Of a DNA stretch of 21,778 bases, positions 4,165 through 4,318 are shown in pieces. The stretch lies in the UHGV virus genome UHGV-0133264; one strand, given 5' to 3'. The notes below the pieces were generated by a model. It did not search any database. It saw nothing but the letters and a program-made list of their open reading frames with translations, and was not told the origin of the DNA. Source of the stretch: a virus. Position 1 is the first letter of the stretch; each line of letters opens with the position of its first letter. The translations under genes were made by a program, and so were the position numbers.

Positions 4165-4318
4165 TGAAACCTCGTAGAATCTGGTGTGTTAACCGATTCT
4201 ACGAGTAGTCATTTGTTCATTGAGTAGGAATATTGTTGTCTGGGGGGTAATCAGTGTAGGTGGAATGAGGGATATGATATGGTTATCACATAATCAGGTT
4301 GTTTTGAGTAAAACAATA

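Follow-up and report, generated by a model that had tools for sequence, protein, structure and literature searches.

A predicted RNA hairpin that shares its DNA with the late promoter LPsit may insulate pmgC of a P1-like phage from upstream transcription

In which transcripts would a stable RNA hairpin form over the ribosome site of a phage late gene, and what would it do there? This question is raised by a palindrome immediately upstream of pmgC in the UHGV virus genome UHGV-0133264, of which we analysed one stretch of 21,778 nt (hereafter, the window). The 1.5 kb around the palindrome (positions 3400-4900) is 98.4% identical to phage P1; this identity places the window in a P1-like phage. 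P1 is a classic among model phages, and phage-plasmids of its kind occur widely in Enterobacteriaceae. On the minus strand, pmgC (3598-4164, 188 aa) is the first gene of the LPsit operon and is followed by tub (tail tube), pmgB, and sit (a tape-measure protein with a transglycosylase domain). In a CRISPRi screen of P1, pmgC was essential (PMC10695390). Upstream of pmgC on the same strand are the superimmunity genes simA, simB, and simC, and simC, the last gene of simABC, is immediately upstream as a 270-aa ORF with a GTG start (4374-5186); in the P1 record, simC is 264 aa long and starts 18 nt inside this ORF. From this arrangement, simC/simABC is the likely source of read-through transcripts into pmgC.

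The palindrome is an inverted repeat of two 11-nt arms, CTCGTAGAATC (4171-4181) and GATTCTACGAG (4195-4205), which are 100% complementary and separated by a 13-nt spacer, TGGTGTGTTAACC. An earlier note on this DNA had described a perfect 11-bp inverted repeat at 4171-4205, and on re-reading both its coordinates and its spacer were exact. On the minus strand, the 5' arm (4195-4205) reads CTCGTAGAATC, the loop (4182-4194) reads GGTTAACACACCA, and the 3' arm (4171-4181), which belongs to the 5' UTR of the late mRNA, reads GAUUCUACGAG. As the note had also said, the 3' arm stops 6 nt before the pmgC start codon: the arm ends at 4171, GTTTCA (GUUUCA in RNA) lies between, and the ATG is at 4164-4162. 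The ribosome-binding region of pmgC (4162-4173, minus strand) consists of the Shine-Dalgarno sequence GAGG at 4173-4170, the spacer UUUCA, and the AUG. All of GAGG had been assigned to the 3' arm; this is right for the GAG of GAGG(U), which lies in the stem, but not for the last G (4170), which falls just outside it.

The expected number of perfect 11-nt inverted repeats with loops of 3-20 nt is 0.084 for each dinucleotide shuffle of the window; 6.8% of 500 such shuffles contained at least one. The window holds three, namely, the palindrome at 4171-4205 and repeats at 7333 and 7712. Neither arm has a second copy in the window at up to one mismatch, as the note had stated for the palindrome, and the whole P1 genome contains no other copy either. 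The repeat at 7333-7358 (AACCTGCCAG-CGAA-CTGGCAGGTT, then TCT) lies directly after ant and looks like an ordinary intrinsic terminator. The repeat at 7712-7737 (AAACTATGCAGAATTGCATAGTTT; loop of 4 nt) is located within the coding sequence of kilA. In the window, kilA seems to be interrupted (7487-8286), with ORFs of 174 aa (7487-8011) and 85 aa (8029-8286) compared with the 266-aa KilA of P1; the interruption is probably a frameshift or a premature stop codon.

The DNA of the palindrome also contains the core of a promoter. LPsit is annotated in the GenBank records of both P1 and P7, and it corresponds to positions 4196-4214 (minus strand) of the window. Its -10 hexamer TAGAAT (4196-4201, minus strand; carried over from the P1 annotation at 98.4% identity) fills six positions of the 11-nt 5' arm, which is made up of the LPsit spacer CTCG, this hexamer, and one C. 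The “-22 box” AAATGACTA (4206-4214, minus strand), a conserved 9-bp element of P1 late promoters, adjoins the palindrome. We compared all 11 annotated P1 late promoters (LPmat, LPpro, LPlyz, LPdar, LPs, LPsit, LP23, LP26, LPpmgL, LPhot, and LPpac), and every one follows the pattern (A)AC-AAGTGACTT-N4-TAnnAT. LPsit, which reads AAC-AAATGACTA-CTCG-TAGAAT at 4214-4196, is thus a regular member of the family; its -22 box and -10 hexamer are identical to those of LP26, with equal spacing. A usable -35 element is missing at LPsit, as CTCAAT, located 17 nt upstream, agrees with TTGACA at two of six positions. Late promoters of this family depend for their activity on Lpa, together with host SspA. The other ten late promoters resemble LPsit in having a -22 box, a 4-nt spacer, a -10 hexamer, and no -35 element; unlike LPsit, none has its -10 in a long stem that pairs with a downstream Shine-Dalgarno sequence. 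In the literature, the 9-bp -22 box of P1 late promoters is the Lpa site (PMC10695390). The palindrome, which the earlier note had proposed to compare with that site, is a different element, the Lpa box being the adjacent -22 element at 4206-4214.

RNA polymerase never starts upstream of its own -10 element. Because the LPsit -10 lies inside the 5' arm, LPsit transcripts carry at most 1 nt of that 11-nt arm; the hairpin is therefore impossible in them, and only RNA from further upstream can fold. Based on promoter geometry and the usual distance of ~7 nt from the -10, we infer that LPsit transcripts start at ~4189, in the loop, which gives a leader of ~25 nt. As RNA, the 5' arm is the anti-Shine-Dalgarno strand, and it is present only in transcripts started upstream. 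The P1 record predicts three sigma-70 promoters (P1-P3pmgC) upstream of pmgC, whose RNAs would carry both arms.

A scan of the window for the late-promoter motif identified only LPsit and LP23. LP23 lies at 15779-15797 (AAGTGACTTTCAATAAAAT), where it follows parAB/parS in the same orientation. On the plus strand, the palindrome presents a further TAGAAT (4175-4180); a mirror-image late promoter there was considered and rejected, as the 9 nt at the needed spacing (CATTGAAAC) are unlike a -22 box. One preprint applies the name “LPsit” to a tail-fibre promoter that the P1 record calls LPs.

The region between simC and the palindrome contains a bidirectional-looking terminator 3' of simC (4315-4347; AAAACGCCC...GGGCGTTTT). 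A terminator scan of 4100-5800 called an intrinsic terminator here, at 4318-4341 (4341-4318 as read on the minus strand), and called no other; an intrinsic terminator at the palindrome itself was rejected, as it has no U-tract. The -10 of the predicted sigma-70 promoter P1pmgC of the P1 record lies at 4342-4347, within this terminator region, and its RNA would begin inside the simC terminator stem and so escape termination. In a search of 3900-4500 against Rfam 15 at E-values up to 1, no family overlapped 4171-4205; the sub-threshold matches all fell within 4252-4381, over the simC terminator region.

RNA folding of the pmgC 5' UTR, a check that the earlier note had suggested, gave a stable hairpin when both arms were present. 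The 55-nt palindrome RNA folded at -21.2 kcal/mol, compared with -7.1 ± 2.2 kcal/mol for shuffled sequences (z = -6.3; 0 of 200 shuffles as stable). The hairpin is a 14-bp helix in which the 11 pairs of the arms are extended by GGU/ACC with a bulged A; its stem takes in the GAG of GAGG at its base and leaves the pmgC AUG free. In RNAs starting anywhere from 4205 to 4314, the hairpin formed whatever the 5' end; RNAs starting at 4187-4192 had no hairpin, and their fold reached just -7.4 kcal/mol.

To compare these RNAs, we calculated an opening cost, defined as the free energy needed to unpair positions -14 to +4. For the pmgC ribosome site, it was 18.0 kcal/mol in the read-through RNA versus 6.9 kcal/mol in the late RNA. 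In a comparison of 110 P1 genes with leaders of 85 nt versus 25 nt, the difference for pmgC, 11.2 kcal/mol, ranked first (mean, 1.3; standard deviation, 2.5). The contrast between late and read-through RNA was also present in P7-, L045-, JK004-, and Salmonella-type sequences (5.8-7.6 versus 16.3-20.8 kcal/mol). At the remaining ten P1 late promoters, the difference was 0-4.6 kcal/mol versus 11.2 kcal/mol at LPsit; the embedded hairpin is specific to LPsit and is no general property of P1 late promoters. LP23, though located 3' of the par operon that is expressed in the lysogen, has no comparable hairpin over its Shine-Dalgarno sequence (difference, 2.1 kcal/mol), and an insulating hairpin is therefore not a general rule in P1. 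The size of the translational block at pmgC is uncertain in these models, in which just GAG is stem-paired, at the base of the stem, and the AUG is free. Shine-Dalgarno pairing probabilities differed less between the read-through and late RNAs than opening energies did, and in the late mRNA CGAG is predicted to pair weakly with a downstream CUCG.

We gathered ~250 related loci, with some contigs represented twice, from phage, plasmid, genome, viral-contig, and metagenome collections. Both arms were invariant in all P1-type loci read, and the 76-bp promoter-hairpin region was present in 510 plasmid records at 80-100% identity. The earlier note had named an absence of conservation in related phages as grounds against its reading, and the arms proved to be strongly conserved. 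Variation among relatives fell in 9 of the 13 loop columns, in the -22 box, and in the spacer between Shine-Dalgarno sequence and AUG. P1-type loops included GGTTAACACACCA, TGTTAACAAACTA, and variants that begin with GGGTAAC or end in CGCCA or ACTA; in one loop variant, the bulged extension becomes a contiguous twelfth pair, U:A. The CTCG spacer, which pairs with CGAG, is fixed at LPsit loci and differs in all other P1 late promoters.

A diverged clade, in which PmgC is 75% identical, carries the palindrome as CTCGTAAAATCGG-CTGAAGAT-CCGATTTTACGAG. This clade comprises Cronobacter phage JK004, five PLSDB Salmonella plasmid records (two of which were read), and several contigs. Here, TAGAAT has become TAAAAT together with a change of ATTCTA to ATTTTA, a compensatory replacement of G:C by A:U. 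The loop is of unrelated sequence, the helix gains a GG/CC extension, and the arms are 12 nt apart versus 13 nt in the P1 type. In the alignment, 132 of 132 cells pair, and the double change, in 1 of the 11 pairs, represents one evolutionary event; RNAalifold independently predicted the same helix. Further covariation was sought in genome, viral, and metagenome contigs, which yielded just two arm haplotypes, the P1 type and the JK004 type. The covariation amounts to a single event, and the two arms are additionally constrained as a -10 hexamer and a Shine-Dalgarno sequence.

Hairpin and promoter occurred together in these loci, and relatives in which pmgC comes right after bplB (4-54 nt apart) have neither. 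These relatives (D6, Serratia, Pantoea, Erwinia, and many soil or gut metagenome contigs; 49-62% identity) showed ordinary opening costs of 5.5-10.8 kcal/mol. A soil metagenome contig, Ga0157364_1038621 (L227; PmgC 62% identical), has at 1340-1503 the order bplB, a strong terminator, a late-promoter-like ACGTGACAA-CGGC-TAACCT, and pmgC. Its sole stem is the 5-bp TAACC/GGTTA, and its Shine-Dalgarno sequence is uncovered.

Comparison with L004, L006, L018, L031, L036, L040, L045, and L077 showed that 4216-5700, flanked by the immI region (c4/icd/ant) and LPsit, is a cargo locus of variable content. At least seven unrelated gene sets abut the promoter-hairpin, and the homology break is always at the “AC” before the -22 box. 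These sets include simABC, a lipoprotein with a DUF5384 protein, secreted proteins of 158 aa and 224 aa, a DUF559-like protein, and others; the upstream cargo genes mostly encode small signal-peptide, lipoprotein, or membrane proteins. Pfam matches for the cargo proteins were weak or uninformative only (TraT-like below the cut-off, DUF5384, and DUF559). In six of the seven contexts examined, pmgC shares its strand with the nearest upstream gene; in the L036 context, the nearest upstream ORF is on the opposite strand, and the hairpin is kept nonetheless. In the P7, L018, and JK004 types, which lack the simC terminator, just 6-28 nt separate the upstream stop codon from the -22 box, and no terminator intervenes. 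The context in the window already has a good terminator after simC, and the hairpin would therefore be a second barrier there.

We consider it probable, at roughly 60%, that the palindrome is a translational insulator like those of T4 gene e and I-TevI. It would have a dual use: as DNA, its upstream arm forms the core of the Lpa-dependent LPsit, and as RNA, that arm supplies the complement of a stretch ending in the pmgC Shine-Dalgarno sequence. Cargo-gene transcripts entering from upstream, presumably made in the lysogen or in early infection, would carry both arms; that the cargo genes are expressed in the prophage is an assumption. Such read-through RNA, whose existence we infer from the locus, would fold into the 14-bp hairpin at about -20 kcal/mol, which would hide the ribosome site and leave pmgC untranslated. 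Rho-dependent polarity on the untranslated pmgC would then probably silence the downstream tail genes too; tub has its own ribosome site, and downstream silencing therefore requires this polarity step. When Lpa turns on LPsit, transcription would start in the loop ~25 nt before the AUG, the 5' arm would be absent from the RNA, and pmgC would be translated. The late morphogenesis genes would thereby be insulated from transcription of the neighbouring cargo hot-spot.

This proposal changes what the earlier note had claimed. Its statement that the hairpin occludes ribosome binding stands insofar as most of the pmgC Shine-Dalgarno sequence would be paired within the hairpin, but this does not extend to the late mRNA. 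Similarly, it had suggested regulated entry into the tail operon; the element does lie at the entry to pmgC-tub-pmgB-sit, but gating of the late mRNA conflicts with the position of the LPsit -10 in an arm. Most likely, the hairpin would silence all but the late mRNA rather than gate the late mRNA, which inverts that first reading. Alternatively, the late operon mRNA itself would fold into the hairpin, and its Shine-Dalgarno sequence would stay masked until some factor opened the structure during lytic growth. This alternative would draw on the stability of a hairpin that includes GAG of the Shine-Dalgarno sequence, and RNAs from the predicted sigma-70 promoters P1-P3pmgC would contain both arms. 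We regard it as unlikely, as transcripts from the annotated LPsit lack the arm in which its -10 sits, no candidate opening factor is known, and the hairpin occurs solely together with the embedded promoter. Improbable as well is a function for the upstream genes, with the hairpin as a terminator or 3'-end stabiliser of cargo mRNAs and occlusion of the Shine-Dalgarno sequence as incidental. The P7, L018, and JK004 contexts have no other stem-loop with a U-tract, and in them no stable structure lies between the stop codon and the hairpin; however, the stem is followed by GGUUUCAAUG (GGUUGGCAUG in JK004) and no U-tract, and the hairpin is unchanged in the sim-type context, which has its own terminator. 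A 3'-end role also leaves unexplained both the coincidence of the 5' arm with the -10 and the end of the 3' arm at the Shine-Dalgarno sequence. Stabilisation of the 3' ends of cargo mRNAs could be an additional role.

As DNA, the palindrome might instead serve as a symmetric operator where a dimeric repressor or activator would cover the LPsit -10 and start, a possibility also raised in the note. It has perfect two-fold symmetry with its centre just downstream of the -10, and the double change in the JK004 clade preserves this symmetry, as a DNA site would need. The single copy in the window and in the whole P1 genome, the shift in spacing by 1 bp between arms 13 nt (P1 type) and 12 nt (JK004 type) apart, and the absence of an equivalent at the other ten P1 late promoters all count against an operator; in addition, the P1 record, which lists protein-binding sites extensively, annotates none here, C1 operators included. 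The pairing extensions also differ in register among lineages (GGU/ACC with a bulge, U:A, and GG/CC), and selection for base pairing therefore fits this variation, whereas fixed protein contacts do not. The dimeric-regulator claim is thus unsupported, and we judge an operator quite improbable. Coincidence, in which the -10 and the leader are complementary by chance and have been conserved because the region is young and nearly clonal, would gain from the ~7% of shuffled windows that hold at least one perfect 11-nt inverted repeat and from the 95-100% identity of most relatives. It is nevertheless very improbable, given the folding z-score of -6.3, the first rank among 110 P1 genes in opening-cost difference, arms that are constant while the loop and flanks vary, and a compensatory change with a wholly different loop in a clade at 75% PmgC identity.

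The translational-insulator reading has close parallels in T4. In long transcripts of T4 gene e and I-TevI, a helix makes the ribosome site inaccessible, and a late promoter lies within the DNA for the 5' strand of that helix, such that late transcripts escape; in related phages covered by the same review, the late promoter is likewise in the region that encodes the 5' strand (PMC3014915). The P1 element is alike in that its helix covers Shine-Dalgarno bases and its late promoter is in the 5'-strand DNA. It differs in that in T4, a virulent phage, the sigma factor gp55 of the phage recognises the late promoter TATAAATA, whereas LPsit has a sigma-70-type -10 and an Lpa-dependent -22 box. The unwanted RNA in P1 would likely be prophage or cargo read-through in a temperate phage-plasmid, not early lytic RNA. 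There is no sequence homology between the T4 and P1 elements, and the P1 case is known from sequence and predicted folds. The same kind of inhibitory hairpin reportedly occurs at the ribosome sites of T4 soc and gene 49.

In IS10 and IS50, RNA started outside the element includes the complement of the ribosome site and is untranslated, and RNA from the proper promoter is without that segment; this fold-back inhibition of transposase translation was reportedly described by Davis, Simons & Kleckner in 1985 and by Krebs & Reznikoff in 1986. The purpose, insulation from foreign transcription, is like that proposed for the P1 element. Unlike these systems, which protect the transposase gene of an insertion sequence, the P1 element precedes the gene at the head of a phage late morphogenesis operon, and its anti-Shine-Dalgarno segment is the promoter's own -10 and spacer.

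The principle is well known; what is new is the P1 locus as an instance of it, at the cargo hot-spot of a very widespread phage-plasmid family. No stem-loop is annotated at the palindrome in the P1 record, and the literature that we consulted on LPsit, pmgC, P1 stem-loops, and fold-back inhibition (a scope that did not include the 2004 P1 genome paper) does not describe the element. If the insulator model is right, it would explain how same-strand cargo, often terminator-free, can sit beside the essential pmgC without leakage of virion proteins in the lysogen. It would also show the principle of T4 gene e and I-TevI at work in a temperate phage, where the host sigma-70 polymerase acts with an activator, and it would offer a simple rule for annotating such insulators. 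For engineering in P1, including “LPsit” cassettes, pmgC constructs with an upstream promoter and both arms should translate poorly. More tentatively, and with somewhat less than even confidence, we propose that the LPsit promoter-hairpin is a portable “cargo insulator,” a fixed downstream edge of a P1-like gene-exchange hot-spot that allows arbitrary prophage genes to be carried without leaky expression of virion proteins. If true, this would be the first example on record, T4-like virulent phages and insertion sequences apart, in which a promoter core is the anti-Shine-Dalgarno strand, and it would provide a design rule for temperate phages that tolerate morons.

Weaker or different arrangements were seen elsewhere in P1. 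At LPdar/lydA (31183-31217 of the P1 sequence, L002, outside the window), CCUCCU is located at the predicted start and AGGAGG lies 8 nt downstream; this is a weaker promoter-versus-hairpin arrangement, with a difference of 3.4-4.6 kcal/mol. At LPdar and LPhot, the translation start is only weakly complementary to the -10 or start region. The gene ranked second of 110 in opening-cost difference was repL (start at 8316), for which opening cost 16.7 kcal/mol with the long leader versus 8.6 kcal/mol with the short one; this predicted difference suggests that repL, downstream of kilA, is translated in a structure-dependent or coupled manner.
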